Positions 15,370-54,160 of a stretch of DNA of 64,000 nt are shown in pieces. The DNA comes from Escherichia coli (GTDB lineage: Bacteria > Pseudomonadota > Gammaproteobacteria > Enterobacterales > Enterobacteriaceae). The notes beneath the pieces were generated by a model. The model did no database searches. It was not told where the DNA came from and was given only the letters and a program-made list of their open reading frames with translations. Positions within the stretch are counted from its first letter, which is position 1. Every line of letters begins with the position of its first letter. The DNA lies in the NCBI RefSeq assembly GCF_011045215.1, contig NZ_CP049201.1, one strand, 5' to 3'. The position numbers were made by a program, and so were the translations under genes.

Positions 15370-15382
15370 AGGAAAGCAAATC

Positions 15383-16837: not shown

Positions 16838-17165
16838 ACGTAACGCCCGTCAGCGTCTGAAAGCGGTGCTGCTCACAGGCGGTATCCTGCTGGCATTTAT
16901 GGTGGTGGCGCTGTTCATTGCGGATGTGGCCATTCGTCATCCTGAAGGGACAGCTACGTTCAGTTCGTGGATGCGGGCTCACCGTTCTGGCTGGCTGCTC
17001 TGGCGTCTGTGCATTTATATCCTGCTGGGCTGGGGTATCTGGCGTATCGTGCATGCGCCGGGGTTCCGGGCGGAATACCGCCAGCCGTTGATGCGTATCT
17101 GTTGCGCCAGTGTGGCGTTTATTCTGGTCTGTGAATATGCGCTGCTGAAGGCGCAGGGAGGCTGA
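16824..17165 (+). CDS. ICE membrane protein (113 aa)
   Basis: ATG overlaps the upstream stop; multiple hydrophobic helices. Confidence 0.5.
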   Translation: MKMNKRNARQRLKAVLLTGGILLAFMVVALFIADVAIRHPEGTATFSSWMRAHRSGWLLWRLCIYILLGWGIWRIVHAPGFRAEYRQPLMRICCASVAFILVCEYALLKAQGG

Positions 17166-18754
17166 TGATGACAACAAACAGCTATCTTGAATATTTTCTG
17201 ACCCTGCTGGGCTGGCTGATTAATAACGGCCTGTGGGATGTGCTGCTGGGGACCGGGTTGTTTGCACTGCCGCTGGTATTTAAGGTGATTGGGATTTGGC
17301 TGCGGGTCAGGGAAGAAGGGGAGGATGAGGGGAATAAGGGACTTCTCTCGCTGCCCCGTATTGAACATGCACTGTACATGGGTTTTTTTGTGATTATCAG
17401 TTGCTGCGTGCCGCTGGTTAATGTCAGTCTGGGGACTATTGAGTATGACGGCAGTCGTGCAAAGCAGTGCGGAACATGGACGCCGAAGGCACCGGATAAG
17501 ACCGGGTATGCAGGTGTGATTTCCAGTATGGACGGTAAAACGGCGCAGATCCCGCTGTGGTGGCTGATGGTGCACAAACTTTCAAAAGGGGTGACTCAGG
17601 CCGCAGTGGCATCCATTCCCTGTACACCGGATATGCGACAGATGCGTTTTGAGGTTCAGCATACCCGGATCAACAATAAGGCACTGATTGAAGAGCTGCA
17701 GGATTTTACCAATGACTGCTACTCACTGGCGCTGTACAGCTGGAAGCACCAGGATCAGGGAATGACAACGGATAAAAATACGCTGCGGGATATTGAGTGG
17801 ATTGGCAGCAGGACATTTCAGTCGCGTTATTACAATGAACTGCAGTCGAAGATGCCGAGAAGTGCGTTTCCGTGGAATGCATCCCGTGACAGTGGACGCC
17901 CAAACACCGGTCGGGGTGGTTACCCGACCTGTAATGAGTGGTGGAGTGAGGCGGATGTCGGGCTGAAAAGTCGGGTGATGAAGCAGGCTGACCCCGGTAT
18001 GTGGCTGCGTCTGTCAGCAACAATGAAAATGATCGGGAATACAGGCAAGGAGTATGAAGAAGCGGTGATACGCCGTCTGGTCAGTCCGGTGAATATGACA
18101 GTGTCACATGGTGGCAGAGCCTATGCCGGTTATGGCGGGAATGCGGATTTGTCGCTGGATAATGCGGTGACCCGCGTGTTCTCAACGGGGGGCGTGGCGC
18201 TGGGGAGTCTGGCGGCGTTTCCGGCCCTGGATGCGATGCGACAGGCATTACCCATGGTACAGGGGATCCTGTTGATGGCTATTTACGTGATGTTACCGCT
18301 GATTCTGGCGTTTGCGGCGTACGAGATAAAGACGGTGATTACACTGACGTTTGTGATTTTTGCGACTAATTTCCTGACGTTCTGGTGGGAGCTGGCACGA
18401 TGGCTGGATTCATGGATGTTTACAGCGCTGTACAGTTCGGGAACACACAGCCGTTTCAATATGGCAGGGTTTCAGAATACCTCAGATGACCTGATTATGA
18501 ATCTGGTGATGGGCAGTATGTTCCTGATTCTGCCAGCGGTCTGGATGGGGGCATTATCTTGGGCCGGGGTGTATATTGGAGGAGCGATGACTCAAAGTAT
18601 GGGAGATGGCACCAGACAAGCTCAGGCATCAGGAGGCAGTGCTGTTAATATGTTGCAGGATGCTGGGTTGCGGGGGATGTCTGGGGGCACGTCAGCAGGC
18701 TCAACAGGCCAAACAGTAGGCTCGGTAGGTCAAAAATTGAATAAGCAAAAATAA
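17165..18754 (+). CDS. TraG N-terminal-domain-like polytopic membrane protein (mating-pair stabilisation-like)
   Basis: Start overlaps previous stop; 529 aa with several TM segments and a Gly/Ser-rich C-terminus; last gene of the T4SS block. Confidence 0.6.
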   Translation: MMTTNSYLEYFLTLLGWLINNGLWDVLLGTGLFALPLVFKVIGIWLRVREEGEDEGNKGLLSLPRIEHALYMGFFVIISCCVPLVNVSLGTIEYDGSRAKQCGTWTPKAPDKTGYAGVISSMDGKTAQIPLWWLMVHKLSKGVTQAAVASIPCTPDMRQMRFEVQHTRINNKALIEELQDFTNDCYSLALYSWKHQDQGMTTDKNTLRDIEWIGSRTFQSRYYNELQSKMPRSAFPWNASRDSGRPNTGRGGYPTCNEWWSEADVGLKSRVMKQADPGMWLRLSATMKMIGNTGKEYEEAVIRRLVSPVNMTVSHGGRAYAGYGGNADLSLDNAVTRVFSTGGVALGSLAAFPALDAMRQALPMVQGILLMAIYVMLPLILAFAAYEIKTVITLTFVIFATNFLTFWWELARWLDSWMFTALYSSGTHSRFNMAGFQNTSDDLIMNLVMGSMFLILPAVWMGALSWAGVYIGGAMTQSMGDGTRQAQASGGSAVNMLQDAGLRGMSGGTSAGSTGQTVGSVGQKLNKQK

Positions 18755-21850: not shown

Positions 21851-22753
21851 GTGTCCAGACGTGAAAAATTACTGAAACAGGATTTGGTTGCTCATATCCG
21901 GAAAGACCGGGGGAGTTTCAAGAAGCTGAGTGACTATTCCCGGATCATGCACCGGTTTGCGGAAAGACTGGCTAAACTGAATATACAGATCAGTTCTGCT
22001 GCGCAGGTAAAAGTGCGGCATATTGAATTATATATGAACAGCAGGAGTGATGTTTCAAAGCGAACCAGAGAAAATGAAATGTCTGCAATACGGGTTATGT
22101 TACGTCAGGCCGGTAAACATAAAATGGCAGATCCTGAACATCCCCGTCTCAGCAATAAGGCGTTAGGTATTTCAGGAGGAAGCCGTAAAGGGACAAAGAA
22201 ATTAATTACGGATGAGCGTTTCCGGGAAATTCTTCAGCGCGTGGAAGCAAAAGATAAAGGGGTGGCAGCTGTTGTTAAACTGTCACGTTATCTCGGTCTG
22301 AGAAATGAAGAAGCTGTCCAGTCGGCCAAATCGTTACGGACGTGGAAAAAAGCGTTACAACGGGGAGATGAAAAAATAAGGGTGATTTTTGGTACGAAAG
22401 GGGGACGGGAAAGAATGACGACGGTTGTTGACCGGGATAAAGTTCTTGATGCTGTTAATTACGCACTCAAATATGCCAGTGAGCATAATGAACGTCTGAT
22501 AGACAGAGATAATCTTAAGTCGGCAATGGATTATTATCTTAATACGTTACGACGTTATGGAGAACTGAAAGGCGGAGATGAAACCGCACACAGTTTTCGG
22601 TACAGTTACGCCGCAAGTGCCATGAAATATCATATTATGAATGGTTACAGTTATAAGGAGGCACTTGCACTGACATCAATTGATCTTGGTCATGGTGATG
22701 GCAGAGGTCGATATATTGAACAGGTTTATTGTCAGTTATTAGGCTATGAGTAA
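21851..22753 (+). CDS. Tyrosine site-specific recombinase (phage-integrase family), 300 aa
   Basis: GTG start after RBS GAGGAGG; C-terminal catalytic-like motifs AHSFRYSYAA (H-x-x-R), LGHGDGRG and RYIEQVY (candidate nucleophilic Tyr). Confidence 0.75.
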   Translation: MSRREKLLKQDLVAHIRKDRGSFKKLSDYSRIMHRFAERLAKLNIQISSAAQVKVRHIELYMNSRSDVSKRTRENEMSAIRVMLRQAGKHKMADPEHPRLSNKALGISGGSRKGTKKLITDERFREILQRVEAKDKGVAAVVKLSRYLGLRNEEAVQSAKSLRTWKKALQRGDEKIRVIFGTKGGRERMTTVVDRDKVLDAVNYALKYASEHNERLIDRDNLKSAMDYYLNTLRRYGELKGGDETAHSFRYSYAASAMKYHIMNGYSYKEALALTSIDLGHGDGRGRYIEQVYCQLLGYE

Positions 22754-26742: not shown

Positions 26743-27690
26743 ATGTCTGAATGGTGCCAGAATCGTTTTGAAATTACCGGTAAGTCAGTCTGTCTGGATG
26801 TGCTGACGCAGTGGATTGAAGGATGTGAGATACCGCGTTACCGCCATGCCATACAGCAGAGTATACAGCTGTTTCTGGCCGGTTGTGCAGGGCTGGTGAA
26901 ACCCACCCGGACGACGCAGTATCCGCCATATCCGGCGCTGGTTCGTCACGGTACTGGGATGTCATCTCCGGCTAACCAGGCATTTGAACAGTGGCTGGGG
27001 CTGCTGGTAAAAGATGCCGTACTGGATGAAGAGACGATAAAGACCATTGACCGCCTTTATCACCAGACATGTATTGGCGCAGTCCGCTGGGGGAATCTGC
27101 CGGATAATGCCCGGGAGATAATCACCGCGTTAATGCGTTGTCAGTATTCTGACTGGTTTGGCCTGGTCGGACTGAGCGAACACATTGATGCCGGAGCCTG
27201 CTGGAGCCGGCTGTCGGATTACCCGGAGCAGGCGCAGCCCTGTGACATGCTGATGGTCATACCCTCCCGTCTGGCCACAGAGCTGAATGGTTCAGGTGGA
27301 CTGCTGCAGGGTATTTCCACCACGACCAGCCTTTACAGCCGGATATACGGTGTGGAGTGGCCATCAGGTCACAATGTCCGCTGGGTGCGTGATGAGATGA
27401 GCAGTCTGGTGCTTCTGACGGATACGCCCTGGTATCCGCCTTCAGGTGAGCTGGTTGGTGAAATCTCGAAGGTGTTCGACTGTGAGATACGGCACTGGTA
27501 CAGCGAACCTGTCCGGGGCATACAGGGTTACAACTGTTATGACGGTGGTGAACATACGGACAGTGACCCGCAGGCTGAATGGCCGGGGAGGGAAACACTT
27601 CCTCAGCCCCGGCTGTATCTGGTGGAGGAGCGCGCTGAAGAACAGACAGAAGCCGCACCTTTACCGGTTCCGCTGGCTTCAGGCCAGTAA
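26743..27690 (+). CDS. Hypothetical protein (315 aa), N-terminus MSEWCQNRFEITG
   Basis: RBS AAGAGGAG upstream. The N-terminus loosely recalls a family of island/plasmid proteins (possibly DUF1281); uncertain without a search. Confidence 0.55.
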   Translation: MSEWCQNRFEITGKSVCLDVLTQWIEGCEIPRYRHAIQQSIQLFLAGCAGLVKPTRTTQYPPYPALVRHGTGMSSPANQAFEQWLGLLVKDAVLDEETIKTIDRLYHQTCIGAVRWGNLPDNAREIITALMRCQYSDWFGLVGLSEHIDAGACWSRLSDYPEQAQPCDMLMVIPSRLATELNGSGGLLQGISTTTSLYSRIYGVEWPSGHNVRWVRDEMSSLVLLTDTPWYPPSGELVGEISKVFDCEIRHWYSEPVRGIQGYNCYDGGEHTDSDPQAEWPGRETLPQPRLYLVEERAEEQTEAAPLPVPLASGQ

Positions 27691-27811
27691 TTAACCTCAG
27701 GGTGTCACATTCGTGGCACCCGTTTTTTCCTGTCATCTTTCATTTCAGCCCGAAGGGGAACACCTGTTCCTCCCCGGGGCCATGTGTTCCCTGTTTTTTA
27801 CGGAGAAACAC

Positions 27812-28504
27812 ATGGCCACCTTTATCGACCATCAGAAGGCCTTCATTTCGCTGTTTAATCAGACCGCCCGTTATCACAAACGCCATAAGGTGTTTGAAGA
27901 CTTTGTCAGCTGCAGTGTGATTGCCCTGGAGAACCGGCTTCAGTTCAGTGAGGCACGGGAGCAGAAGTACCTGCGAATCGTCAGTGGTTATGAAAAGCAG
28001 GATGTTATCAACATGGCGCATTTGCTTGCTCATGTCATTGAGGGACTGGAGCAGGGATTCTGTGACTTTCTGGGCAGCGTGTTCATGCAACTGGAGCTGG
28101 GGGATAAATACCGGGGCCAGTTTTTCACGCCCTGGAGTGTGGCCAGAATGATGGCACAGATGCAGCTGGGGAATGTGACGACGCTGTTTGAGAACAAGCC
28201 CTTTATCACGCTCCGTGAACCGGCCTGTGGTGCCGGCAGTATGATACTGGCTATGGCTGACACCCTGAACCATTCGGGATATCCGGCATATCGCAGGATG
28301 TGGGTGTCGGCAACGGATATTGACCCGCTGGCAGCCGGCATGGCGTATATACAACTGTCGCTGTGTGGTGTGGCCGGTGAAGTGGTGATTGGCAACTCAT
28401 TGTGTAATGAGCGACGCCGGGTACTGCTGACGCCCGGGCATTACCTCGGGAACTGGTCATATCGTCTGCGTCATTCTCAGGAACAGGTCACAGCTGATGC
28501 CTGA
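27812..28504 (+). CDS. HsdM-like N6-adenine methyltransferase fragment (SAM-binding region only, 230 aa)
   Basis: Motifs GQFFTPWSVARMM (resembles the type I/gamma MTase F/Y-TP motif) and EPACGAGSMILA (motif I-like) are present, but no NPPF/Y catalytic motif; the ORF ends soon after. Confidence 0.5.
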   Translation: MATFIDHQKAFISLFNQTARYHKRHKVFEDFVSCSVIALENRLQFSEAREQKYLRIVSGYEKQDVINMAHLLAHVIEGLEQGFCDFLGSVFMQLELGDKYRGQFFTPWSVARMMAQMQLGNVTTLFENKPFITLREPACGAGSMILAMADTLNHSGYPAYRRMWVSATDIDPLAAGMAYIQLSLCGVAGEVVIGNSLCNERRRVLLTPGHYLGNWSYRLRHSQEQVTADA

Positions 28505-28752
28505 TTTTTTATCACTACGCCAGTCTTCGGGCTGGCGTTATTATATTTGCGTTGCTTGTTATTGGGGGCGGTTTCTATGTACGTCAGGAGCATTTTTAAA
28601 CCGATGTGGATAAGTAACTGATTGATTCATCGTGATCAGCTATCGCTTCTAAGTTATTGCTTTTCTCTTATCGCATTTAGGTTATCTCATGTCCCTAAAG
28701 GTCTGCCAAACACCGTATAGCGTGGGAGTACACCCTACCGCGATAACGTAAC

Positions 28753-28768
28753 CGTACAATATTGTACG
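28753..28768. promoter_or_regulatory. 16-bp perfect palindrome CGTACAATATTGTACG (candidate operator) about 95 bp upstream of the hydrolase gene
   Basis: Seen directly in the intergenic region 28505..28863. Confidence 0.4.
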
Positions 28769-28863
28769 TTTCCCAAACGCAGCTCTGTGGGGGAAATTTG
28801 GGTTAAGTATCGACCGGTGTATGATAGGGCAATATTTAACCAGAGAAATTAAAAGGATTTGTT

Positions 28864-31089
28864 ATGTCTAAGCCGGAAAACGGCCAACAGCTGCCCGCCA
28901 TCTGTTGGCCGGTGCCTAAAAATAACCGGGGCGGGGAGTTCAGTAATCTCGAGGAGATGTTGGCGCATCTGGAGGGCGAGGCCACCGGGCACTGGCTGAT
29001 TGGCCGTAATGGTATGTGGCACGGGGGAATTCATATCACGGATATCACGACTCCGTGGTGTGCGCTCAGCGGTCAGTCGATGAATGAGGCGGTGGATTTT
29101 CCTGTGCCGTTTAAGGGAGAGCAGCCCGTGCGCTGCATGGCGGATGGTGAGGTGGTGGCGTACCGGATAAACCGGGATTCTCTCAGCGTGCCGTGGTACT
29201 GGGGGGATTTACACTACTCCGGGTCTTTTGTACTCATTCGCCATCGTATTCAGCCAGGGGAAACGGCAGAGAGCGGGCTGACCTTTTACACCCTGTATAT
29301 GCACCTCGCGCCCTGGCTGGCTTACCCGGAGCAGGACAGTACGGCGTTTAAGGTCGCAGACAGACAGTATCTGAATGCGTATGCGGACGCGTCCCGGCAG
29401 TGGGTGGTGGCAGAGTTGCCACCCGGTACACGTGTGATATGGGACAAAGCGGTAAGTGCAGACACCATGACAGGGAGCAACGGTCGGCAGTATGCGCGCG
29501 TTACGCTGGCGGAGCCGGTGACGGGCAGGATGAACCTGAACGCCGGAGACCGGGTATGGACAGTATGCGATAAAGGGAATCTGGTTCCGGTTCGTGACAG
29601 TATCATCCGTCCGGCGTGGTGGTCGCCGTTCCTGCCGCCGTCACGCGAAACGGTACAGTTTGATACGGTGGTGTGTCCGACACCTTACCCGATTAAAGCC
29701 GGTGCCCCGGTGGGGCATCTGGGCTATTTTCAGGTACCCACGGATAACGGGCATGAAAAACGCTATCAGGTGCATATCGAATGCCTGACAACGGACGACC
29801 TGCCGCGCTTCCTGAGCAACCCGGAAGGTGTGGGGCGTGACACTCCCGCCTTTGCCCGTTGTCCGAAGGATATACCGGTGTATCTGAAATATACGGACGG
29901 AGAAATACACAAGAGCCTGGTAACCACGGAGAGCGAAACGGTGATGGCGCTGTCAGGTCAGGTGGTGACGGACAAAGAGGGTAAACGCTACTGGTCGGGG
30001 GGAGGGGTATCACGCGGACTGCTGGCGGAGTCAGATGTGCAGTTGTTATCCAGGTATGACCTGGCTGACCGGGGTTTTGAGGCCACGGAGGATAACCCGG
30101 TGAGCTTTGACCATCTCGACGGAAAGAGACAGCCGAAGGGGCTGGTGAGGACGATTTTTGAGCGTTTTTTCAACGTGGCGGATAATGACGGTAAGCTCTA
30201 CAGCAAAATAGTGGCATTCAACTACCGGCAGCTGCTGGACCAGATTGATGACGCCAAATCCCCCCGGTATAACCCGGAACTGTACCGGCGCGCGGTACAG
30301 AACCCGTCAATGCGTGAGCATCTGTATCGTTTGTGCGTGAAACATCCCAGCGAGTGGTATTACTCGTCGGAGTCTTCGGTATGGAAAGCATTTTTTACGC
30401 CCCAACTGAAAAGAGACGCCACGGAGTGGTACGCCTACAGTATGAAATTTTTGACGGATCTCCGCTGGATGTACCGTGTGGCCGGAATGGTGGAAAATCC
30501 GTGGCATATGCACCCACTGGTATTTCTTGATGCTATTAATGATATAGGTATGACTCTCGATGAAGCCAGAGTTCGGGCATTTATGAGAATGATTCGAGTT
30601 GGCGAAGGGACTGTTGGTGAGGTTGGGTATGAAACATTGTTTGGTAAGCAGTCATTCATAAAAGATTATCATAAAGATTTTAGTGATCACCCGAACATAA
30701 TAATTACTAGAGGTACATTAAAGTCTTCTGCGGCTGGAGCATATCAAGTAATGGGTTATACATGGAATGATCCTAACATGTTGTTTTATCGCAAAAAATA
30801 TGGGATCGTGGATTTTTCTCCGAAATCACAAGATGAGTTTTGTGTGCTAATCCTTAAATATAAAAGGAAAGGGGCTTTAAAACTTATCATTGATGGTGAC
30901 ATTGATGGGGCTTTAGATATTTTGAGTTACGAATGGGCAAGTCTTCCCCCTGCCAGATACCCTCAACCAACCAAGAGTAAGAGTGAGGTTATGTCCTTAT
31001 ACAATAAGTATTTATTAGAAGAGCTCTTAGGGGAGACAGATCTTCACCTGCCAATCGGCTACATAAAACAAGTTTATAATGGTGTGTAA
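28864..31089 (+). CDS. Multidomain cell-wall hydrolase-like protein (741 aa) with C-terminal lambda-lysozyme-like (GH104-type lytic transglycosylase) domain
   Basis: C-terminal residues ~570-741 align by eye with recalled phage lambda R motifs (VGEGT..GYETLF, DFSDHP, AAGAYQVMGYTW, DFSPKSQDEF, KGALKLIIDGDIDGAL, EWASLP). N-terminal region has an M23-like H-x-G motif (WHGGIHITD), unconfirmed. GC drops sharply near 30540. Confidence 0.7.
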   Translation: MSKPENGQQLPAICWPVPKNNRGGEFSNLEEMLAHLEGEATGHWLIGRNGMWHGGIHITDITTPWCALSGQSMNEAVDFPVPFKGEQPVRCMADGEVVAYRINRDSLSVPWYWGDLHYSGSFVLIRHRIQPGETAESGLTFYTLYMHLAPWLAYPEQDSTAFKVADRQYLNAYADASRQWVVAELPPGTRVIWDKAVSADTMTGSNGRQYARVTLAEPVTGRMNLNAGDRVWTVCDKGNLVPVRDSIIRPAWWSPFLPPSRETVQFDTVVCPTPYPIKAGAPVGHLGYFQVPTDNGHEKRYQVHIECLTTDDLPRFLSNPEGVGRDTPAFARCPKDIPVYLKYTDGEIHKSLVTTESETVMALSGQVVTDKEGKRYWSGGGVSRGLLAESDVQLLSRYDLADRGFEATEDNPVSFDHLDGKRQPKGLVRTIFERFFNVADNDGKLYSKIVAFNYRQLLDQIDDAKSPRYNPELYRRAVQNPSMREHLYRLCVKHPSEWYYSSESSVWKAFFTPQLKRDATEWYAYSMKFLTDLRWMYRVAGMVENPWHMHPLVFLDAINDIGMTLDEARVRAFMRMIRVGEGTVGEVGYETLFGKQSFIKDYHKDFSDHPNIIITRGTLKSSAAGAYQVMGYTWNDPNMLFYRKKYGIVDFSPKSQDEFCVLILKYKRKGALKLIIDGDIDGALDILSYEWASLPPARYPQPTKSKSEVMSLYNKYLLEELLGETDLHLPIGYIKQVYNGV

Positions 31090-31527
31090 ATGAAAAATAT
31101 ATTCCTTATATTGATATTTGTATCATCATTTACTTATGCTGGTTCTGATTTTGGAACTTGGGGAACATCATGTGATGATAATGGGTTCATTCTTTCATTA
31201 AAAGAAGATTCATCTCCATTTGTTGTTAGTGATAATCAGATAGTTGTATCCATACATTCAAGAAGGATTAACCATAAAGTTATTGATGTTTTTTTTGATG
31301 ATACATTAGATCTTGGGATAGGAGGCATGGGGTTTAACTGGGGGGATGTTGATAAAACCAAAAAAATAGCCGAGTTAACATATTCTGAAAATAATAAATG
31401 GCTGATGAAATGGTTTGGTTTTTGGGATGCAAAAAAAAAGACACGTTTTTGGGTGAAAGAGCCTGATTTTATCCAAACATACGCAAAAAATAACGTCATA
31501 ACATTGATTAAATGCGAAGAACAGTGA
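31090..31527 (+). CDS. Secreted small protein (145 aa), candidate immunity protein for the upstream hydrolase
   Basis: ATG directly after the upstream stop (TAAATG); signal peptide MKNIFLILIFVSSFTYA; AT-rich like the hydrolase C-terminus. Confidence 0.5.
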   Translation: MKNIFLILIFVSSFTYAGSDFGTWGTSCDDNGFILSLKEDSSPFVVSDNQIVVSIHSRRINHKVIDVFFDDTLDLGIGGMGFNWGDVDKTKKIAELTYSENNKWLMKWFGFWDAKKKTRFWVKEPDFIQTYAKNNVITLIKCEEQ

Positions 31528-31582
31528 TGGTTTGACTGCAATGGCTAAATTGAGGCAGCAATAATTTCAGGAAAACAAAAAT

Positions 31583-31760
31583 GATCTTCTTGAGATCCTT
31601 TTTTCTGAGAGTAGTTTCTTGTCCTGTAAATGAAAAAACGCCGGAAGGCGGGTTGGTTCGGGTTCGTTGATCTACCAAATCTTTGAAGCTGGGCGGTAAC
31701 AGGACTCTATGTGGGAGACAGTTACCAATACATTATAGTACTTCCCAGTAATCTGCTGAT
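31583..31760. other. Remnant resembling a ColE1/p15A-type plasmid origin (RNA I/RNA II region)
   Basis: GATCTTCTTGAGATCC, CTGTAAATGAAAAAACGCCGGAAGGCGGG and GATCTACCAAATCTTTGAAGCTGGGCGGTAACAGG parallel recalled p15A/pBR322 ori strings in the same order; diverged, not verified by alignment. Confidence 0.4.
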
Positions 31761-31849
31761 CAGACCGGGCCAGCCAGAGATGCAGGTCGGTGATGATCAA
31801 CCGTCGTATACGAATCTGTATGGTGTTGAGCTGCTGTCCCGATTTAGTA

Positions 31850-32590
31850 TCAGACTGGATGTAGTGAATCTGTTTTTCCGGACGAGCATTTCATGGTGAA
31901 TTGTCGTGGTGTTATATTAAAGTGTTGTCTGAAAAGATAGACAAAGTAGGATGTACTGGAATAGCCACATTTTTCAGCAACGTGTTTCACTGAGTATTTC
32001 TGTTCCAGTAAGTTTCTGGCTGAAAACATTCGTACTTCGAGTAAAATTTTACTGAAACATGTGTTTTCAGACAGAAGTTTTTTCTTTATCAGACTTTCAC
32101 TCATATATACATATTCAGATATATCGCGCAACTTCCATTGTCGTGATATATCTGACAGTAATATGTTTCGTACTTTTCCTGAAAAAGTTGGGATGCCAGA
32201 TGAAAGGAAGTTTATTAAAGCGGGGCGGGTATTAAAAATTGACAATAACGAGAAACAGACAGCTTCTCTGAATTCCGGATGGATATGATTTTCATAATTT
32301 ATATTGTTTATGAGTTCTGACAACACTTCCGGGTAGGCAAAACATTTTTTCAGAAAATGAACAGGCCCGTCGTAGGTTGGTTTTTCCCCTGTATGGCGAT
32401 GGTGTATATAATGGTTTACTGTATCTTCATTCAGAGGTACTTCAGTGAATTTATCTGAAAATGTAAGAAAGCTTGTCATCAAAGATGGATTAACAAGAAG
32501 AATATCGCCATAATTTAATATTAATACATCATTAAAAAAACGGAAATTAAATGATCTTTTTATCAGTATGAAGGAGCAGATGATAGTCAT
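31850..32590 (-). CDS. AraC-family transcriptional regulator, AppY/EnvY-like
   Basis: C-terminal HTH region (ERQWKLRDISEYVYMSESLIKKKL ... VAEKCGYSSTSYFVYLFRQHFNITP) closely parallels recalled E. coli AppY ([24 protein letters not shown] ... [25 protein letters not shown]). AT-rich. Confidence 0.7.
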   Translation of the reverse strand: MTIICSFILIKRSFNFRFFNDVLILNYGDILLVNPSLMTSFLTFSDKFTEVPLNEDTVNHYIHHRHTGEKPTYDGPVHFLKKCFAYPEVLSELINNINYENHIHPEFREAVCFSLLSIFNTRPALINFLSSGIPTFSGKVRNILLSDISRQWKLRDISEYVYMSESLIKKKLLSENTCFSKILLEVRMFSARNLLEQKYSVKHVAEKCGYSSTSYFVYLFRQHFNITPRQFTMKCSSGKTDSLHPV

Positions 32591-32873
32591 AATTCTTTGC
32601 GCTGTTACAGTTTTTTATTTATGTAAGTATGGATGAAGGGAAAAAAAAGGAAAAATATTTTGTTTTTTTGTGATTGCTGTCACGTAATAAATAAAAAGCA
32701 ATTGATTATATTGCTGTATTGTGCTGTAAAGAAGAGTTAAGCTCTGTCTGGTACTGATTTATTCCGGGGGACGGAGGGGCATGGCAGATGAAGGGATGAA
32801 CAGGGACTTTTTGTTTAATTCGTTGACAGCAACAGTCATAAGAGAAAGCAACAATTCACATATGGGGCAGTTT

Positions 32874-33569
32874 ATGAAAACTATCTTCATAGCAGAGCCT
32901 GTCGTGACGGCAGGTAACAGTAACAGGCTGATTGCGGTGGAGATTCTGAGCCGATTTTATTCTGTTAACGGAAAACAACTTCCTACCGTGAAAACGCTGA
33001 ATATGTTTACAGCAGAGATGAAAATTGATTTGCTGGAATTACAGATAAGAAAAATAATAAGTAAAGCTTCTTTTTTTAGTAAGCATAATATACTGTGTTC
33101 CCTTAACGTCGATTATGATACATGTCAGTATATATACAGAAATAAAAATATTCAGGATATAATAAAGTCATATGATTTTATTGTTCTTGAAATTTCTGAA
33201 ACATACCCGGTCATAAAGGCTGATGATGCAATAATTCCTTTTCTCATTAATCTGTCAGAACATATCTGGCTGGATGATTTAGGGAGTGGTAACAGTACAA
33301 TACATACGTTGATAAGAAATAAATTCCAGGCAGTGAAACTTGACAAAAATTTTTTTCAAATACATAGTATGAAACCGCATTTTGCTGCATTAATAGACAA
33401 TATAAAAAGATTATGCCCTCTGGTTATTGCCGAGGGTGTTGAAAACAAGAATTATCTGCATGCTGCTTCAGGTGCTGGTTTATGGGGCGTTCAGGGATAT
33501 TATTTTCCATCAGTACCGCTTGAGGATATTCATCAGATAAAGTTGGATTTTTCTGAGAACATCAGCTGA
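32874..33569 (+). CDS. EAL-domain protein, YdiV-like (degenerate EAL; EIL instead of EAL)
   Basis: EAL-domain motifs (EILSRF, DDLGSGNST, KLDK, AEGVE, QGYYF); DDLGSGNSTIHTLIRNKFQAVKLDKNFFQ parallels recalled YdiV LGAGNSTMKAVFDGLFTRVMLDKSFIQ. Start chosen at ATG 32874; ORF-track start is 32781. Confidence 0.65.
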   Translation: MKTIFIAEPVVTAGNSNRLIAVEILSRFYSVNGKQLPTVKTLNMFTAEMKIDLLELQIRKIISKASFFSKHNILCSLNVDYDTCQYIYRNKNIQDIIKSYDFIVLEISETYPVIKADDAIIPFLINLSEHIWLDDLGSGNSTIHTLIRNKFQAVKLDKNFFQIHSMKPHFAALIDNIKRLCPLVIAEGVENKNYLHAASGAGLWGVQGYYFPSVPLEDIHQIKLDFSENIS

Positions 33570-33803
33570 TGAGTCTGTCATACTTTTTCTTCCCGGGTAT
33601 ATCCGGGCTGTGTTTAAATATAATAGTCATAAGAAAACTGGTTATTATATTTTCAGGTGAATTTGTTTACATGTTCTGATCGGGACTCGCTTTCAGATTG
33701 CAGGGAGTAATAAAAAGTACTATCACTGCGTATTCCGTTCTACTCTATCACGGATTGGCCCAAACTGTGTCGATTCAGATGCCATTTTGCACTATCACTT
33801 ATT

Positions 33804-34538
33804 ATGAGCTGTTTTTGTATTCATTTTAGCAGCCATCTCCATGATGGTATTGACAGTGGCTGTCCCGGTAAGAAATATGATATACACCGACCATTAAATA
33901 TGCTGGCGTTAAGCTGGCATAATACTTCTGGTCGCTATTCACTGGGGGGAAGTTATCAGAAAGATGATTCCGTGCAAATTTTAGGGGAATTAAATAAAAA
34001 ATTTAAGATCCGTGAAAGAGATTCTGCGAAAAGTCAGTTAAAATTTTTCTACGCTGAACTTGAGGGTTTTAATAAAGAAAAAAAGAGAAGGGCTGGGGAA
34101 CCTGATGATACCTATCTCCTTTCCGGACAGATATCATTTAATACACCTGATTTTGGAGCATTTGTCAGTGCGGGATATATTAATCATGCAATATCAGGAA
34201 CAAATGTAGATACCGATCGTTCTTATGTATATTCTCTGAGTATAGATCGTAATAAAGAACAAATGTACTCTTTTTAGACAGGATTTACATATAACATCAC
34301 ACCAGAATTAAGTGCAATGATGACCCATGGTTATGAATCCAGTCGTAAAGATGTAGAAATACAGGGGGCATGTATTTTGGGAGCAATGACTTACAATATC
34401 AATAATGGACCTAATATATTTCTTTCTGCAGACAGATGCAGAGAAAAAAGAGATGGCAGCCGTTTTGGTGATCGTCTTAATTATTGGGATGTTAAATTAA
34501 GTATTAGGTATGATATATATATATATGATTCTCTGTAA
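33804..34538 (+). pseudogene. Interrupted ORF: two same-frame ORFs separated by a single in-frame TAG at 34278-34280; no signal peptide
   Basis: Seen directly: 33804..34277 and 34317..34538 are in the same frame and read through apart from one amber codon; alternating hydrophobic pattern suggests a beta-barrel protein remnant. Confidence 0.35.
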
Positions 34539-34996
34539 AGAGGCAGATGCTGAATCCATTCACCCTGTAGTCCATGATTTCGAATCTGGTAGGGTGTATT
34601 TATAACTGACAATATAATGAGGTAGTTCCGGTTTCTCTTGTGTTTATAAATTTCTCATGTCTTTGTTAAGCAACTGTTTGTATTATTCTGATTGACTTAT
34701 TTTCACTGGTGTTAAGACCACAGGTATTGTCAGTATTCGAACAGTATTTCACGAAATTCTTATACAGTATTGCACGGTTTTCCGGACGTTTAAACTTCAA
34801 ATGGTTAAACTGGCTTCACAACAGGAGCTTCTGTTGTCTGTATTGTTCGAAAATACGGGGATACCGTATTTTCTGAGTTATATTATACAATCTTGTTTTA
34901 TAAAATACCCCTGTGCGAATGAACACACAGGGGTATTTTATATTTCAGTTTTTCACCATAGAGTATGAACAGATTGCAAATATAATCCCGACAATA

Positions 34997-44216: not shown

Positions 44217-45914
44217 TCACGGTTGGCGATCGCGCAAATGTGCGCTGAAGGTTTCAGCATCCATAAAGCCCGTGACGCGTGCTTGTGGATGCTCCTGGCC
44301 TTGTCCGTCAAAAAAGAGAATTGTCGGTAGGCCAAGGACATTAAGATGCTTTAACAGCGCCACATCTTGTGCGTCGTTGGCCGTGACGTTGGCCTGAAGT
44401 AAGACCGTGTCTGCTAACGCTTTTTGCACCTGCGGGTCGCTGAAGGTGTATTTCTCAAACTCTTTACAGGCGACGCACCAGTCGGCATAAAGATCTAACA
44501 TCACCGGTTTGCCTTTGGCTTCAACGAGCGCCTGATTTAACTCATCTACCGTTTTGATTTGTGTAAAGTTGAGATGCGTCTGAGTTTGCGCGGTATGCGT
44601 CGCACCAAATGCCCAATCCTGAAGTGGGCGCACGCTAACCAATGCCGCTGCCAGCAGGATTATTTGCATCACGCGCATCCAGCCGCGTTTGGCCTGTAGG
44701 CTGGTGATAAAGGCCCAGCCAAAGAATGCGACACCCAGCGCCGACCACAAGCGTAATCCCCATATATCACCAATCACTCGCTCCAGCAGGAAGACCGGCA
44801 GTGCGAGGATCACAAAACCAAACGCGGTTTTGACTTGTTCCATCCACGGGCCGCTTTTCGGCAGCAAGCGGTTACCAAAGACGGTAATTAGCATCAGCGG
44901 CAGGCCCATGCCCAACGCATAGAGATAAAGCGTGCCGCCGCCCAGCCACATGTTCCCGCTTTGGGCGATATACAGCAGAATCGCGCTAAGCGGTGCGGTG
45001 GTGCATGGTGAACAGATCAGTCCGGCAATCGCCCCCATAATAAACACTCCGCCGGGTGAGCCGCCCTGTTGGCGATTGCTCATCAGCGTGAGGCGCGTTT
45101 GCAGCGAGGAGGGGAGTTGTAGAGTAAACAAGCCAAACATTGACATCGCCAGCAAGGTAAAGACGATGGCGAGGCCAATGAGCACGTATGGGTGCTGTAG
45201 CGCCGCCTGGAACTGTAACCCTGCGGCGGCAACTACCAGACCCAGCGCCGTGTAAGTCAGTGCCATCCCCTGCACATAAATAAAGGTCAGCAACAATGCT
45301 CTGGCTGTGGAAAGCCGCTGTTTACCGCCCAGCACGATGCCAGAAATCAGTGGGTACATTGGCAGCACGCATGGCGTAAAGGCGATACCAATACCGATCA
45401 ACAACGCCCAGAGCGCGGAAAAGGGCAATTGCGCGGTGGGCTGCTCTTGCTGCGGAACAGACACAGGCTGTGGCGCTGTGTTGTTGGCGACCACTTCGCT
45501 TAACGGAACGGTTTTGGTTTCTGGCGGATAACAGAAACCGGCATCAGCACAGCCCTGGTAGGTGACAGTTAACGTCGCTCCCGCACTCGCCTGGTTGATG
45601 GTTACGGGAAGCGTCAGCCGATCGCGGTAAATCTCGCTTTTGCCGTAAAACTCATCTTCATGCCAGACGCCTTGCGGAAGCTGCACGTCGGCAATTTTCG
45701 CGTGTTCCGGCGTAATGCGGATCTGTTTACGGTAGAGGTAGTAACCGTCTTTGATCTGCCAGGTCAGATTAAGGTCATGTTGGTTTTGCTGAAAATCAAA
45801 AGTAAAGGCTTGATCCGCGGGGACAAATTGTGAACGTCCCGGCGCGTCGAATAATCCGGCAAAAACGGAAGTGCTGCAAAGTAGCAGGATCAGCGTAAAG
45901 ATGCGTTGAGCCAT
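44217..45914 (-). CDS. dsbD: Thiol:disulfide interchange protein DsbD (DipZ)
   Basis: Protein from [19 protein letters not shown] matches recalled DsbD (periplasmic domain, TM core, C-terminal thioredoxin WCVAC); start trimmed from the ORF track. Confidence 0.9.
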
Positions 45915-46228
45915 GAGAGGTAATCTGTGTCTCCGTGTGTAACAGGTAAAACCAGAAGTTCCGGGGTTTGATATGGATGATGAGACTTCAGGCATTCCAG
46001 CAGTGCCTGCTGGTGAGATACGGTAGTTTTTAAAATCATCTGCACTTCGTATTCTTGCTCCAGCTTACCTTCCCAGTAATAGAGAGAGGTAGCGCCGGGG
46101 ATCAAGGTCGCGCAGGCCGCCAGTTTTTCCGCCAGCACTTTGGCGGCTAAATCCTGGGCTGTCGCTTCATCCGGTGCGGTACATAGCACCACGACAGACG
46201 CGGTATTCGAACTTTTTTCATCAAGCAT
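45890..46228 (-). CDS. cutA: Divalent-cation tolerance protein CutA
   Basis: Sequence [35 protein letters not shown] matches recalled CutA; overlaps the dsbD start as in K-12. Confidence 0.85.
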
Positions 46229-46343
46229 AAACACCTCGCAAGAACAGATGGAACCGCAAGAGAGAGGTCACTATACAACGGACGGGGAAAGGATGTTAGT
46301 CGGCGGGAAAGAAAGCGGGGCGTGAACGCCCCGCGATTGGTCA

Positions 46344-47645
46344 TTACAGCATGAAGCTACCCAGCACGAAGCCGAAGCAAACGGCCAGGGCAACACCCAG
46401 AGTACCCGGGATGAAGAACGGATGGTTGAAGACGAATTTACCGATACGGGTAGTACCCGTGTCATCCATCTGTACCGCAGCAACCAGCGTCGGGTAGGTC
46501 GGCAGAATGAACAGACCAGACACCGCAGCGAAAGAAGCAACAGCGGTCAGCGGAGAAACGTTCAGTGCCAGAGCCATCGGCATCAGTGCTTTTGCGGTTG
46601 CAGCCTGAGAGTACAGCAGAGCAGAAGCAAAGAAGAAGATGACGGCCAGCAGCCACGGATGACCCTGAATCACTTCACCAGCGGTATCTTTGATCCAGTC
46701 GATGTTGTTGGAAACGAAAGTATCGCCCAGCCACGCAACACCCAGGATACAAATACAGGCGCTCATACCTGCTTTGAAGGTGCTGGAGTTGAGGATGTTG
46801 TCGGTATCGACTTTACAGATAACGGTGGTCAGAGTTGCAACGCTGAGCATGATGATCAGGATTGCGTTGGTGGTGTTCATCAGCGGTTTTTCAACCAGAC
46901 CCATGCTTGGGCTGTTGATGATTGCATAGATAACCACGCCAACTACGCCCAGCAGGAACAGCCAGACGGACGTTTTTGCACCGGATTTGATTTCAATCTG
47001 CTTTTCACCGCGCAGTTCAACCAGGCCCTCTTCCAGACGCTTGCGATAAATCGGATCGTCAGAGAGTTTGGAGTTGAACAGCATAGTGACCAGGAAGGAC
47101 ATCACCAGAACCGCCAGCAGGGTGGACGGGATGACCACGGAGAGCAGATGGAGGTAGCTGATGCCATGACCTTCCATCACGGAAGACATGTAAACCACTG
47201 CCGCTGAGATTGGCGATGCGGTGATCGCAATCTGCGCGGATACCACTGCAGTAGACAGCGGACGGCAAGGTTTAACGCCTTGTTCCTTCGCAACTTCAGC
47301 GATAACTGGCAGTGTCGCCAGAGAGATGTTGCCAGTACCAGCAAAGATAGTCAGGAAATAGGTCACGATCGGTGCGAGGATCGTGATGTATTTCGGGTTA
47401 CGGCGCAGCAGCTTTTCTGTCTGATGAACCAGATAGTCCAGACCGCCAGCAACCTGCATGGCAGAAATAGCGGCGATAACCGCCATGATAATGGAAATGA
47501 CATCGAACGGGATGTTACCGGGTTTAACGCCAATAGCGGCAAGAACCAGCACCCCCAATCCGCCTGCAAAACCAATACCTATTCCCCCCAATCTGGCGCC
47601 CAAGAAGATCGCCAGCAAAACTATGATGAGTTCTACAACTAGCAT
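46344..47645 (-). CDS. dcuA: Anaerobic C4-dicarboxylate transporter DcuA
   Basis: 433-aa polytopic membrane protein upstream of aspA in the conserved order; matches recalled DcuA. Confidence 0.9.
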   Translation of the reverse strand: MLVVELIIVLLAIFLGARLGGIGIGFAGGLGVLVLAAIGVKPGNIPFDVISIIMAVIAAISAMQVAGGLDYLVHQTEKLLRRNPKYITILAPIVTYFLTIFAGTGNISLATLPVIAEVAKEQGVKPCRPLSTAVVSAQIAITASPISAAVVYMSSVMEGHGISYLHLLSVVIPSTLLAVLVMSFLVTMLFNSKLSDDPIYRKRLEEGLVELRGEKQIEIKSGAKTSVWLFLLGVVGVVIYAIINSPSMGLVEKPLMNTTNAILIIMLSVATLTTVICKVDTDNILNSSTFKAGMSACICILGVAWLGDTFVSNNIDWIKDTAGEVIQGHPWLLAVIFFFASALLYSQAATAKALMPMALALNVSPLTAVASFAAVSGLFILPTYPTLVAAVQMDDTGTTRIGKFVFNHPFFIPGTLGVALAVCFGFVLGSFML

Positions 47646-47762
47646 ATTAGCCTTCCTTGTTTTTTAACAAGTTGATATTAGATTGTTATTTTTAAGTTAC
47701 TGCTCACAAGAAAAAAGGCACGTCATCTGACGTGCCTTTTTTATTTGTACTACCCTGTACGA

Positions 47763-49199
47763 TTACTGTTCGCTTTCATCAGTATAGCGTTTTGCTTTGT
47801 AAGCCGGGTGCATCAGATTCTGTACGGAGAAAATATCGTCAAGTTCCGCTTCAGTCAACAGACCGCGTTCCAGAACGACTTCACGTACACTCTTACCGGT
47901 TTCGGCACAGATTTTACCCACGATGTCACCGTTGTGGTGACCGATGAACGGGTTCAGGTAAGTAACGATACCGATAGAGTTGTAAACGTAACCTTCGCAC
48001 ACTTCTTTGTTAGCAGTGATGCCGTTAATGCATTTTTCCAGCAGGTTGTAGCAAGCGTTGGTCAGAATGTGAACGGATTCGAACATAGCCTGGCCAATGA
48101 CCGGCTCCATAACGTTCAACTGCAGCTGACCTGCTTCTGCTGCCATGGTAACAGTGGTGTCGTTACCGATGACTTTGAAGCATACCTGGTTAACCACTTC
48201 CGGAACAACCGGGTTTACTTTAGCTGGCATGATGGAAGAGCCCGCCTGCAGTTCCGGCAGGTTGATCTCGTTCAGGCCGGCACGTGGACCAGAAGAGAGC
48301 AAGCGCAGGTCGTTACAGATTTTGGACATCTTCACAGCCAGGCGTTTCAGCGCGCCGTGAACCATAACATAAGCGCCGCAGTCTGAGGTCGCTTCGATCA
48401 GGTCTTCAGCCGGTACGCATGGGAAGCCAGTGACTTCAGCCAGTTTTTTCACTGCCAGCGGAGAGTACTCTTTCGGCGTGTTCAGACCAGTACCGATTGC
48501 TGTTGCACCAAGGTTAACTTCCAGCAGCAGTTCAGCGGTACGTTGGATATTTTTCACTTCTTCTTTCAGCAGGATGCTGAAAGCGCGGAATTCCTGACCG
48601 AGGGTCATCGGTACTGCGTCCTGCAGCTGGGTACGACCCATTTTCAGGATGTCCTGGAATTCGACAGCTTTACGTTCAAAGCCTTCACGCAGTTGGTTAA
48701 TCGCATCTACCAGCTTAATCAGGGAAGAGTAAACTGCGATACGGAAACCGGTCGGGTAGGCGTCGTTAGTGGACTGACATTTGTTAACATGGTCGTTCGG
48801 GTTCAGGTACTGATATTCACCTTTCTGGTGACCCATCAGTTCCAGACCGATATTGGCCAGCACTTCGTTGGTGTTCATGTTTACGGAAGTACCTGCGCCG
48901 CCCTGGTAGACGTCTACCGGGAACTGATCCATGCATTTTCCGTTGTTCAGGACTTCATCACATGCGGCAATGATGGCATTCGCTACACTTTTAGGAATGG
49001 TTTGCAGCTCTTTGTTTGCCATAGCTGCGGCTTTTTTAACCATTACCATACCGCGAACAAATTCAGGAATATCACTGATTTTGTTGTTGCTGATATAGAA
49101 GTTTTCAATCGCTCTCAGAGTGTGAACACCATAGTAGGCATCAGCTGGAACTTCCCTGGTACCCAACAGATCTTCTTCGATACGAATGTTGTTTGACAT
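47763..49199 (-). CDS. aspA: Aspartate ammonia-lyase
   Basis: Sequence from [24 protein letters not shown] with the [10 protein letters not shown] lyase signature; start trimmed to match AspA. Confidence 0.9.
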
Positions 49200-49535
49200 G
49201 TGAACCTTCTTTTTCAAGCTGCCAATGATTTGCTTTAAACACACAGAATATATGTGGTTTCGAATGTTTTTCGACCGACGATTATCCCCTGCATCGACCG
49301 AATACCCGAGATCATATGCTGCTTGAGGATTTCTACCGTAATCTGGATCACTTTAAGTGTCGGTTTTTACCCCTTAATTATTAATTTGTGAAATAGATCA
49401 CCGCTTTGGGATTACTACCAAAAATAGTTGCGCAAATATCTTGAAATTTTGCTAATGACCACAATATAAGCTGAACGCGATTCGCAACCCATTCAGGTAG
49501 CCGGGTTTAACCGGCTGCTATTACAGGAGAAACCT

Positions 49536-50012
49536 TTGCGCTGGTTACCTTTTATTGCCATTTTCCTTTATGTCTATATTGAGATTTCAATCTTTATTCA
49601 GGTTGCCCATGTATTGGGGGTATTGCTGACTCTCGTGCTGGTTATATTTACGTCAGTTATCGGTATGTCACTGGTACGTAACCAGGGCTTTAAGAATTTC
49701 GTGCTGATGCAGCAAAAAATGGCGGCGGGTGAAAACCCAGCGGCGGAGATGATTAAAAGTGTTTCGCTGATCATTGCCGGTTTGCTGCTTTTATTACCGG
49801 GCTTTTTCACCGACTTCCTCGGTCTTCTGCTTTTATTGCCGCCGGTGCAAAAGCATCTGACAGTGAAGTTGATGCCGCATTTGCGCTTTTCTCGTATGCC
49901 AGGCGGCGGTTTTAGCGCCGGGACCGGTGGCGGTAATACTTTTGATGGTGAGTACCAGCGAAAGGATGATGACCGCGACCGCCTTGATCATAAAGACGAT
50001 CGCCAGGATTAA
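49536..50012 (+). CDS. fxsA: Inner membrane protein FxsA
   Basis: 158-aa protein MRWLPFIAIFLYVYIEISIF matches recalled FxsA. Confidence 0.85.
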   Translation: MRWLPFIAIFLYVYIEISIFIQVAHVLGVLLTLVLVIFTSVIGMSLVRNQGFKNFVLMQQKMAAGENPAAEMIKSVSLIIAGLLLLLPGFFTDFLGLLLLLPPVQKHLTVKLMPHLRFSRMPGGGFSAGTGGGNTFDGEYQRKDDDRDRLDHKDDRQD

Positions 50013-50027
50013 TGTCGAAACGCCGGA

Positions 50028-51284
50028 TTATGTGGTTATGCCATTTTCCGGCGTTTTTCGTTTTGGCAGAAACAGCCATAACCCCGCCAGCATGATCAGC
50101 GCATAGAGACTTTTCCAGCCGACCATTGCCAGTAACAGAACGCATAACAGCCCGCCAACCACCGCCAGTAGTCGATAACGACCTTGCAATAATTTACAGC
50201 CTGCCAGCATGCATAACAGATAAATCATAATAAAGATGCCATTGGCATAAATAATAAGAGCGTCCAGATTGATCTCTAAAGCATGAATCACCAACGTGCT
50301 CACCACGCAGCAGCCGAGCACCGCATTGAGGGCATTATTCGGGATATGGCGAGAAGAGAGGCGTGCCAGGTAGTGGTCAGGATTATGTTGCGCCTGCGAC
50401 CAGACCAGGCGGGCGAAGCTCTGTATATAAATGTTGAGACTGGCAAAGCAGGCCAGATAGCCAATCACGCAGGCAATCCATAACGCTCCTACACCGAACA
50501 ACTGCACTACAATTTTTGGAAGCGATGCTGCCGCCGCCATTTGTTCACCATAGGCGTCGAAGTGTAAGACGACTACCGTACAGCCCCAGTAGACTAATCC
50601 TGCCAGCAGCAGACCAATCATCAAAGCACGAGGAAAATCACGTTCTGGATTTTTAAATTCCGAGGCAAGATGGGCAAATGCTTCCAGACCGACAAAACAC
50701 CAGAACATCACTGATAACGCAGCAAATAACCCGGTAAGTTCAATATTTCCTGGCGCGGGGAAGGGGATACTCGCAGGTTTGATATCGCCCGCCCACCAGA
50801 TAGCGACAATCAGTGCGACGATAAGTCCGGCAATAACGGTTTGTAGATTTGCACTGGAACTGGCACCGCGAGTACCGATATACCACACCAACGCCAGCGT
50901 ACCGAGTTCTGCCAACAACAGTTGCCAGCTATGCCAGCCAAACATCGCCTGGCCGAACCCGGCAGCAATTTGTAGTGCGGCGGGTAAACCCACAGGAATG
51001 ACTGATAAAAACAGCCAGCCGGTGACTCGCTCAAGCCGCGAACCAAACGCCATACCTACGAAGTGCGCGACGCCGCCTGCGCTGGGATAGTGGCGACCCA
51101 GAATCGCAAACACAATCGCAATCGGGAACACTAAGATAATCAAAACGGGCCACGCCCACAGGCTGTTATTGCCCGCTACCAGCGCAGCTAACGCAGGAAC
51201 GGCAAACACGCCAGTGCCTAATAATGACGTCGATAGCAGGCCAATGCCCTGGGCCAGCCCCAGTTCTTGTTTGAGTCCACTCAT
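50028..51284 (-). CDS. yjeH: Amino-acid exporter YjeH (APC family)
   Basis: Polytopic transporter; start set at MSGLKQELGLAQGIG to match recalled YjeH. Confidence 0.85.
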   Translation of the reverse strand: MSGLKQELGLAQGIGLLSTSLLGTGVFAVPALAALVAGNNSLWAWPVLIILVFPIAIVFAILGRHYPSAGGVAHFVGMAFGSRLERVTGWLFLSVIPVGLPAALQIAAGFGQAMFGWHSWQLLLAELGTLALVWYIGTRGASSSANLQTVIAGLIVALIVAIWWAGDIKPASIPFPAPGNIELTGLFAALSVMFWCFVGLEAFAHLASEFKNPERDFPRALMIGLLLAGLVYWGCTVVVLHFDAYGEQMAAAASLPKIVVQLFGVGALWIACVIGYLACFASLNIYIQSFARLVWSQAQHNPDHYLARLSSRHIPNNALNAVLGCCVVSTLVIHALEINLDALIIYANGIFIMIYLLCMLAGCKLLQGRYRLLAVVGGLLCVLLLAMVGWKSLYALIMLAGLWLFLPKRKTPENGITT

Positions 51285-51444
51285 GGGTTGATGTCCGATT
51301 GCGCCCAAATTTTGGGCAACTGCGTAGATTTTCGATGGTAGCACAATCAGATTCGCTTATGACGGCGATGAAGAAATTGCGATGAAATGTGAGGTGAATC
51401 AGGGTTTTCACCCGATTTTGTGCTGATCAGAATTTTTTTTCTTT

Positions 51445-51485
51445 TTCCCCCTTGAAGGGGCGAAGCCTCATCCCCATTTCTCTGG
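51445..51485 (+). promoter_or_regulatory. Sigma-32 heat-shock promoter of groESL (-35 CCCCCTTGAA, -10 CCCCATTTC)
   Basis: Seen directly about 80 bp upstream of groES; matches the sigma-32 consensus and the known groE promoter. Confidence 0.7.
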
Positions 51486-51508
51486 TCACCAGCCGGGAAA
51501 CCACGTAA

Positions 51509-51853
<345 letters not shown>

Positions 51854-51884
51854 TCCTCGCACGACACTGAACATACGAATTTAA

Positions 51885-53543
<1,659 letters not shown>

Positions 53544-53570
53544 TTGCCCTGCACCTCGCAGAAATAAACA

Positions 53571-53605
53571 AACCCCCGGGCAGAAATGTCTGGGGGTTTT
53601 TCTTT
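53571..53605 (+). terminator. groESL terminator hairpin (CCCCCGGGCAG ... CTGGGGG followed by T-run)
   Basis: Seen directly 28 bp after the groEL stop. Confidence 0.5.
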
Positions 53606-53680
53606 TGGTCATCTTTCTAGTATAAGATTCAGACACGGACGACGCGAGTGGCGTCCAGCTCATTGATTATGGGGAATAAC

Positions 53681-54034
53681 ATGCACGTAAAATACTTAGC
53701 AGGGATTGTCGGTGCCGCGCTACTGATGGCGGGTTGTAGCTCCAGCAACGAATTGAGTGCTGCCGGTCAGAGTGTACGCATTGTGGACGAGCAGCCAGGC
53801 GCAGAGTGCCAGCTGATTGGTACTGCGACAGGTAAGCAAAGCAACTGGCTTTCCGGGCAACACGGAGAAGAGGGCGGTTCTATGCGCGGCGCAGCAAACG
53901 ATCTGCGCAACCAGGCGGCTGCAATGGGCGGTAACGTGATTTATGGCATCAGTAGCCCGTCGCAGGGAATGTTGTCCAGTTTTGTCCCGACGGATAGCCA
54001 GATTACCGGCCAGGTATATAAGTGCCCGAACTGA
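53681..54034 (+). CDS. yjeI: Lipoprotein YjeI
   Basis: MHVKYLAGIVGAALLMAGCSS lipobox N-terminus; matches recalled YjeI. Start trimmed from the ORF track. Confidence 0.75.
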   Translation: MHVKYLAGIVGAALLMAGCSSSNELSAAGQSVRIVDEQPGAECQLIGTATGKQSNWLSGQHGEEGGSMRGAANDLRNQAAAMGGNVIYGISSPSQGMLSSFVPTDSQITGQVYKCPN

Positions 54035-54061
54035 TGTGATGGTGACAAACGTATAATTGCC

Positions 54062-54160
<99 letters not shown>

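Follow-up and report, generated by a model that had tools for sequence, protein, structure and literature searches.

The segment at positions 33804 to 34538 of the Escherichia coli DNA analyzed here (a 64-kb stretch, called the window throughout) appears, with a probability of about 0.95 judged from its sequence, to be a nonfunctional pseudogene fragment of an accessory uidC (gusC) paralogue borne by an integrative conjugative element (ICE). It is an ordinary pseudogene of a known kind, and its allele is already present in public databases. The remnant comprises the 3' 56% of a gene for a 414-amino-acid (aa) UidC/GusC-type glucuronide porin, lies in low-GC (35 to 42%) cargo of an ICE at tRNA-Phe in E. 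coli, and carries four lesions: loss of its 5' part to a 4,070-bp deletion, an amber codon, a 12-nucleotide (nt) in-frame deletion, and the slippage gain of one TA unit. The amber codon did not itself inactivate the gene and is secondary, because the promoter-proximal 183 codons and residues of strand 15 are also missing. Where the preliminary description of this DNA saw a gene remnant interrupted by an amber codon, the TAG is real, but it is only one of the four lesions.

The features are listed below; coordinates of the intact locus are those of L001, the E. coli contig (GCA_016672065.1) that encodes the intact porin P0001 and serves as reference.

33804..33840, plus strand: chance ATG and 12 codons (about 12 to 13) of the former EAL-GH2 spacer (junction alignment, colinearity with L001)
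33841..33841: deletion junction with 1-nt microhomology (A), 4,070 bp (L001 6479-10548) missing (blastn and base-by-base view)
33842..34538, plus strand: porin pseudogene remnant, codons 184 to 414 of a 414-codon island-borne uidC/gusC-like gene, equivalent to predicted strands 8 to 18 of 18
34275..34277, plus strand: amber codon in predicted strand 14, Gln328 changed from CAG to TAG by a C-to-T change at 34275; the intact loci have C here
34314..34315, plus strand: site of the 12-nt in-frame deletion, TAATGTTTGCTC lost between AATG direct repeats (DNA and protein alignments)
34514..34525, plus strand: (TA)6 tract, which is (TA)5 in intact and most deleted alleles (repeat counts per locus)

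One porin gene behind two open reading frames

The ORF listing, the sequence, and its translation bear out a same-frame pair of ORFs split by a single TAG. The two ORFs (33804..34277, 157 aa, and 34317..34538, 73 aa) occupy a common frame on the plus strand, their starts being 513 nt, or 171 × 3, apart, and translation of 33600-34560 encounters one stop between them, with the frame open again from 34278. The TAG had been placed one codon too far downstream, at 34278-34280, which reads ACA.

The joined translation matches the NCBIfam UidC profile NF008479 (about 421 positions; curated cutoff, 510 bits) with 235 bits, covering only profile positions 199 to 420 of 421; being below the cutoff and not full-length, the remnant belongs to the UidC family by descent and is not an intact member. 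Intact P0001 (414 aa, E. coli, named "glucuronide uptake porin UidC") scores 516.1 bits against the same profile over positions 24 to 419 and passes the cutoff. In a search of a large protein collection, P0001 was 96% identical to the joined translation over 93% of the query, and three more UidC-type proteins (P0002 to P0004) were recovered at 46 to 50% identity; tblastn placed porin residues 183 to 414 at 33840-34523 of the window. The UidC match (E = 1.3e-69) and the 96% identity to an intact 414-aa protein indicate that the joined frame did not arise by chance. Pfam gave nothing significant for the joined translation (best, Caf4, E = 0.13) and no match at threshold for P0001.

The upstream ORF, as had been noted, has no signal peptide: its N terminus, MSCFCIHFSSHLH, derives from intergenic DNA and shows no Sec signal peptide, as opposed to that of P0001, MNKRYLIIFLAVLPLMVSA, which is a typical one. 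The amber codon replaces a glutamine codon, which answers the earlier question of whether a sense codon had been lost there, and in protein alignments the family sample shows no variation at Gln328, Ala344, or Pro345, even in homologues with as little as 51% identity. A sequence plainly homologous to an intact gene thus bears disabling lesions at conserved positions.

The porin family is small: when 1.84 billion proteins are clustered at 50%, it has 60 representatives. Its relationship to the OprD/Occ porins is evident at the level of sequence profiles: Pfam OprD (PF03573) matches 11 of 19 full-length relatives (best E = 8.4e-15), and a 19-sequence family profile searched against the PDB retrieved the Occ porin 5dl6 (E = 8.7e-11) and OprD 3sy7 (E = 8.1e-10), although a PDB sequence search with a shallower alignment was not significant. 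An AlphaFold (AF2) model of P0001 built from the 19-sequence alignment has 18 strands, with a pLDDT of 87.1 and a pTM of 0.84; an earlier model from a 6-sequence alignment (pLDDT, 36.5) was discarded. With this model as the query, the best PDB matches in Foldseek were OccAB3, OccK9, and OpdK, and the intact UidC-type porin is predicted to be an OprD/Occ-like 18-strand beta-barrel. It resembles the OprD/Occ porins (PF03573; OccAB3, 5dl7; OccK2, 4fms, with glucuronate) in the 18 strands of the model and in TM scores of 0.77 to 0.79 to 5dl7, but its sequence identity to them is just 12 to 18%, and P0001 itself falls below the Pfam threshold. Mapped onto the model, the remnant keeps strands 8 to 18 (11 of 18), with the TAG in strand 14 (residues 322 to 334) and a four-residue loss in strand 15 (residues 339 to 351); this is not a complete barrel, and a copy with 11 strands cannot form one. 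The UidC match, the OprD/Occ fold, and the four lesions together uphold the earlier suggestion that an outer-membrane beta-barrel gene is decaying beside the autotransporter locus.

In E. coli, the gusC product facilitates glucuronide uptake across the outer membrane (PMC9881133). The intact island allele is similar to UidC (GusC) of E. coli, which the uidABC/gusABC operon encodes as its outer-membrane component, in its length (414 versus 421 aa), its signal peptide, its passing of the UidC equivalog cutoff, and its position next to genes for a glucuronide transporter and a beta-glucuronidase. It differs in sharing just about 50% identity with P0002 to P0004, the UidC-type proteins recovered, and the island cluster departs from the uidA-uidB-uidC operon in its divergently oriented glucuronidase gene and its location on an ICE at tRNA-Phe. 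The window copy is further removed from E. coli UidC, with only codons 184 to 414 left and these bearing a nonsense codon, the 12-nt deletion, and a shifted stop.

The 4,070-bp deletion and the intact island

In L001, the gene order is DUF1281, a methylase-like gene, genes for proteins of 741 and 145 aa, AraC, EAL, GH2 (minus strand), MFS_2, the porin, the autotransporter (minus strand), AraC, a UvrD-like gene, TraI_2, and an integrase. By NCBIfam, the GH2 protein is a beta-glucuronidase (791 bits; cutoff, 544), and the MFS protein, of the GPH family and encoded on the plus strand, is a glucuronide transporter (719 bits; cutoff, 528). Positions 6512-11245 of L001 therefore hold a complete accessory glucuronide cluster, all three of its proteins scoring above the NCBIfam equivalog cutoffs, that is missing from the window. 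A blastn comparison pairs L001 1-6478 with window 27364-33841, colinear at 99.5% identity, and L001 10548-14716 with window 33841-37977, at 96.9% identity. The intervening deletion removed the beta-glucuronidase gene, the transporter gene, and porin codons 1 to 183, including the signal peptide; tblastn detected neither the GH2 and MFS genes that adjoin the porin in L001 nor porin residues 1 to 182 elsewhere in the 64-kb window. The drop in identity to L001 across the junction reflects divergence lying mostly in the autotransporter, and the two flanks may have different histories through recombination or may differ by a faster-evolving adhesin.

The junction reads ...AGCAGCCATCTCCA|TGATGGTATTGAC..., whereas the left side in L001 runs on as ATGGAGATGGCT. 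These latter bases complete a hairpin at L001 6468-6490 that has a 10-bp stem and a 3-nt loop (-10.2 kcal/mol; z = -4.8), and the left breakpoint falls inside this loop, in the EAL-glucuronidase spacer; the right one falls within codon 183 of the porin gene. What survives of the hairpin in the window is its left arm, at 33831-33840 (AGCCATCTCC). The absence of a signal peptide from the upstream ORF follows from the same junction, since its ATG, at 33804, and the 12 codons after it are former EAL-GH2 spacer DNA placed in frame by chance. No Shine-Dalgarno motif lies upstream of this ATG.

Literature searches turned up no account of this island or of a second gus cluster. Megablast searches of window segments 33570-34996, 28000-40000, and 31000-38000 against 5,426 complete RefSeq E. 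coli genomes and the PLSDB plasmids produced matches to the autotransporter and to a short fragment of IS66 and to nothing else, never to the remnant or the AraC-EAL segment. None of the 5,426 genomes contained the accessory glucuronide cluster, and the porin region was likewise without a match among PLSDB plasmids. Among the roughly 65 members of the porin cluster of P0001, the 418-aa P0014 has an unrelated N terminus, MRGSYEQEIFNNVPCGITSDGIG..., where a signal peptide would be expected, pointing to a further, independent 5' rearrangement or frameshift of the porin gene in a different strain.

Smaller lesions, inheritance, and competing explanations

All differences were listed from a DNA alignment of the remnant with two intact and four deleted loci. 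The 12-nt deletion converts VMFAP to A, eliminating the conserved residues A344 and P345 of strand 15, and the extra TA throws the ancestral TGA out of frame, such that the ORF ends in YDIYIYDSL* and not in the ancestral YDIYI*. Beyond the four lesions, a missense change at 34027 (V to A) is specific to the remnant; there are also one synonymous change (34484) and changes at two sites, 34152 and 34390, that also vary among intact alleles. The remnant has 5 substitutions relative to L001 in about 700 nt, which is not clearly above the level in the intact left flank (0.5%), and the decay of the remnant appears to be recent. Like ordinary bacterial pseudogenes in accessory or mobile-element cargo, the remnant is truncated, stops prematurely where a codon is conserved, has slippage indels in short repeats, and has been misannotated as ORF fragments for "hypothetical proteins"; it is distinctive only in having the left deletion end exactly in a hairpin loop.

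The fragment ORFs stand in public databases as the hypothetical proteins P0008 (125 aa, ending in ...EQMYSF) and P0009 (69 aa; 73 aa in the window). P0008 is carried by 8 contigs, and five of these loci, L003 to L007, which come from separate NCBI assemblies and Logan read sets, were read. Each of the five has the TAG, the 12-nt deletion, and the junction at 33841, with identities of 99.65 to 100%; every deleted copy seen carries all three lesions. Because the same junction, TAG, and 12-nt deletion are common to five separately assembled loci, the lesions are real and heritable and not sequencing errors, and they are inherited within a clonal lineage. The (TA)6 tract and 34484T occur in the window and L007 only, the latter being identical to the window over 33625-37921, and the TA slip is the most recent event. 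SRR11014969 likewise shows 100% identity over 33625-37921.

The history of the locus reads as follows. The ancestral island held a complete second glucuronide-utilization cluster between the EAL and autotransporter genes, in the order beta-glucuronidase (minus strand), GPH-family glucuronide transporter (plus strand), and UidC-type porin of the OprD fold (plus strand). A single 4,070-bp deletion took out the glucuronidase, the transporter, and porin codons 1 to 183; to judge from the position of the breakpoint, it may have arisen by hairpin-promoted illegitimate recombination or replication slippage. The piece of porin left over has no promoter, native start codon, or signal peptide and has lost 7 of its 18 strands, with the ATG at 33804 presumably a chance start created by the fusion and translated to no purpose. 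The smaller lesions would represent neutral decay, an argument for drift that draws on few events, and expansion of the TA repeat has shifted the stop in a sublineage that includes the window.

Several other explanations of the ORF pair bear on this account. Gene callers treat the two ORFs separately in several assemblies, as would be expected of two independent small genes, P0008 (125 aa) and P0009 (69/73 aa); both, however, are colinear with one 414-aa gene that has Gln at the position of the stop, and they are separate ORFs only in loci with the deletion and the TAG. The preliminary description had allowed that homologues might reveal two independent genes, but the homologues are single 414-aa genes, so its claim of a decaying gene stands. 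Neither ORF has a signal peptide or a Shine-Dalgarno motif, each product would be a mere fragment of a beta-barrel, and the chance that these are two genes is vanishingly small. No greater credence can be attached to a porin made functional by amber read-through, which had been offered as an alternative. A glnV (supE) suppressor inserts Gln at amber codons, and a suppressor of the supE type could reinsert the ancestral Gln, given that the TAG replaces CAG and the frame is open on both sides; but the read-through product would still be without its signal peptide, strands 1 to 7, and four residues of strand 15, and its C terminus would be altered, leaving no route to function. Moreover, the partner glucuronidase and transporter genes are gone from the 64-kb window, and the sole tRNA gene there is that for tRNA-Phe.

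An error of sequencing or assembly could be imagined for the stop or the deletion, as a homopolymer-like (TA)n tract and a T run, contexts prone to error in some chemistries, flank two of the lesions. Five other loci, drawn from both NCBI and Logan read-set assemblies, have an identical junction, TAG, and 12-nt deletion, and (TA)6 recurs in L007, all of which makes such an error extremely improbable. The remnant might alternatively have been co-opted, as a 3' untranslated region or small RNA, as a regulatory spacer for the convergent autotransporter gene, or as the source of a short cytoplasmic peptide initiated at the chance ATG. At least 8 contigs from the deleted lineage retain it, and the fused ORF has an ATG and 157 sense codons, as would be compatible with such a role, but these contigs are 99.65 to 100% identical, and retention therefore reflects recent common descent and not selection. 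Rfam had no match in 32500-35500, the 8 promoter-like sites found compare with 10.0 expected from shuffled sequence, and a terminator-like hairpin (33592-33607 in a terminator scan) follows the EAL gene, upstream of the remnant. With no Shine-Dalgarno motif and with indels still accumulating in the remnant, co-option is very unlikely.

As a pseudogene fragment, the remnant carries little biological weight and exemplifies, in textbook fashion, how cargo genes decay in a mobile element. For databases, fragment ORFs of the P0008 and P0009 type should be joined into a single entry marked as a uidC-like pseudogene. The deletion marks an ICE lineage without the accessory beta-glucuronidase/transporter/porin cluster that its sister islands keep, a loss that could matter for beta-glucuronidase-based typing of E. 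coli and for gut glucuronide metabolism, and its end in a hairpin loop provides a clean natural case of palindrome-associated deletion. A larger claim is improbable, though less so than co-option: that the uncharacterized second glucuronide cluster on the ICE would confer additional or different scavenging capacity and a beta-glucuronidase-positive phenotype independent of uidA, and that its clean loss was selected and not due to neutral drift. Were that so, loss of the cluster at the hairpin loop would have been selected in one clonal lineage, for example, because it shed a porin that served phages or colicins as their receptor.

Genomic surroundings

Positions 1-43500 of the window as a whole look like an ICE inserted at tRNA-Phe. 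Conjugation genes (TraD/G, TraC, TraU, and TraG_N) fill 768-18754, the assignments of the UvrD-like, relaxase, and integrase genes next to the tRNA are based on colinearity with L001, and 44000-64000 is E. coli core chromosome (frdA, groL, aspA, dcuA, and dsbD; 99.5% identity), with core genes from about 44000.

768-2975: coupling protein (TraD/G)
2947-3720: DUF4400
7051-8541: TrbI-like
9071-11899: TraC
14395-15369: TraU
17165-18754: TraG_N
21851-22753: second integrase-like gene
31850-32590, minus strand: YdeO/GadX-like AraC regulator, intact (NF007407, 184 bits, below the cutoff of 348)
32781..33569, plus strand: EAL-domain (c-di-GMP phosphodiesterase-like) gene, intact, stand-alone (Pfam EAL, E = 6.5e-20)
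34997..37549, minus strand: AIDA-I/MisL-type autotransporter, 850 aa, intact, convergent with the remnant (NCBIfam autotransporter barrel domain, E = 1.7e-119)
39042-40622: UvrD-like helicase
40534-42180: TraI_2 relaxase
42238-43230: tyrosine integrase
43423-43498, minus strand: tRNA-Phe

The AraC regulator gene is divergent from the EAL gene, and both lie in the lowest-GC part of the window (35%); in L003, the AraC gene was called as only 84 aa. The autotransporter gene is open in all related loci, with repeat-length variants giving 857 and 865 codons, and it also occurs on large cattle-associated E. coli plasmids at 87 to 94% identity. About 55 nt beyond its 3' end, at 34899-34942, is a perfect 17-nt inverted repeat (TATAAAATACCCCTGTG / CACAGGGGTATTTTATA, with a 10-nt spacer) that is probably the terminator of the autotransporter gene. 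A 58-nt fragment at 34788-34846 shares about 93% identity with tnpA, an accessory gene of the IS66 family, and matches about 1,900 E. coli genomes. This fragment forms the left edge of a segment, 34788-37551, that is 97% identical to the chromosome of E. coli IBS28, in which IS remnants and a cdiA/cdiI locus flank the matching segment.
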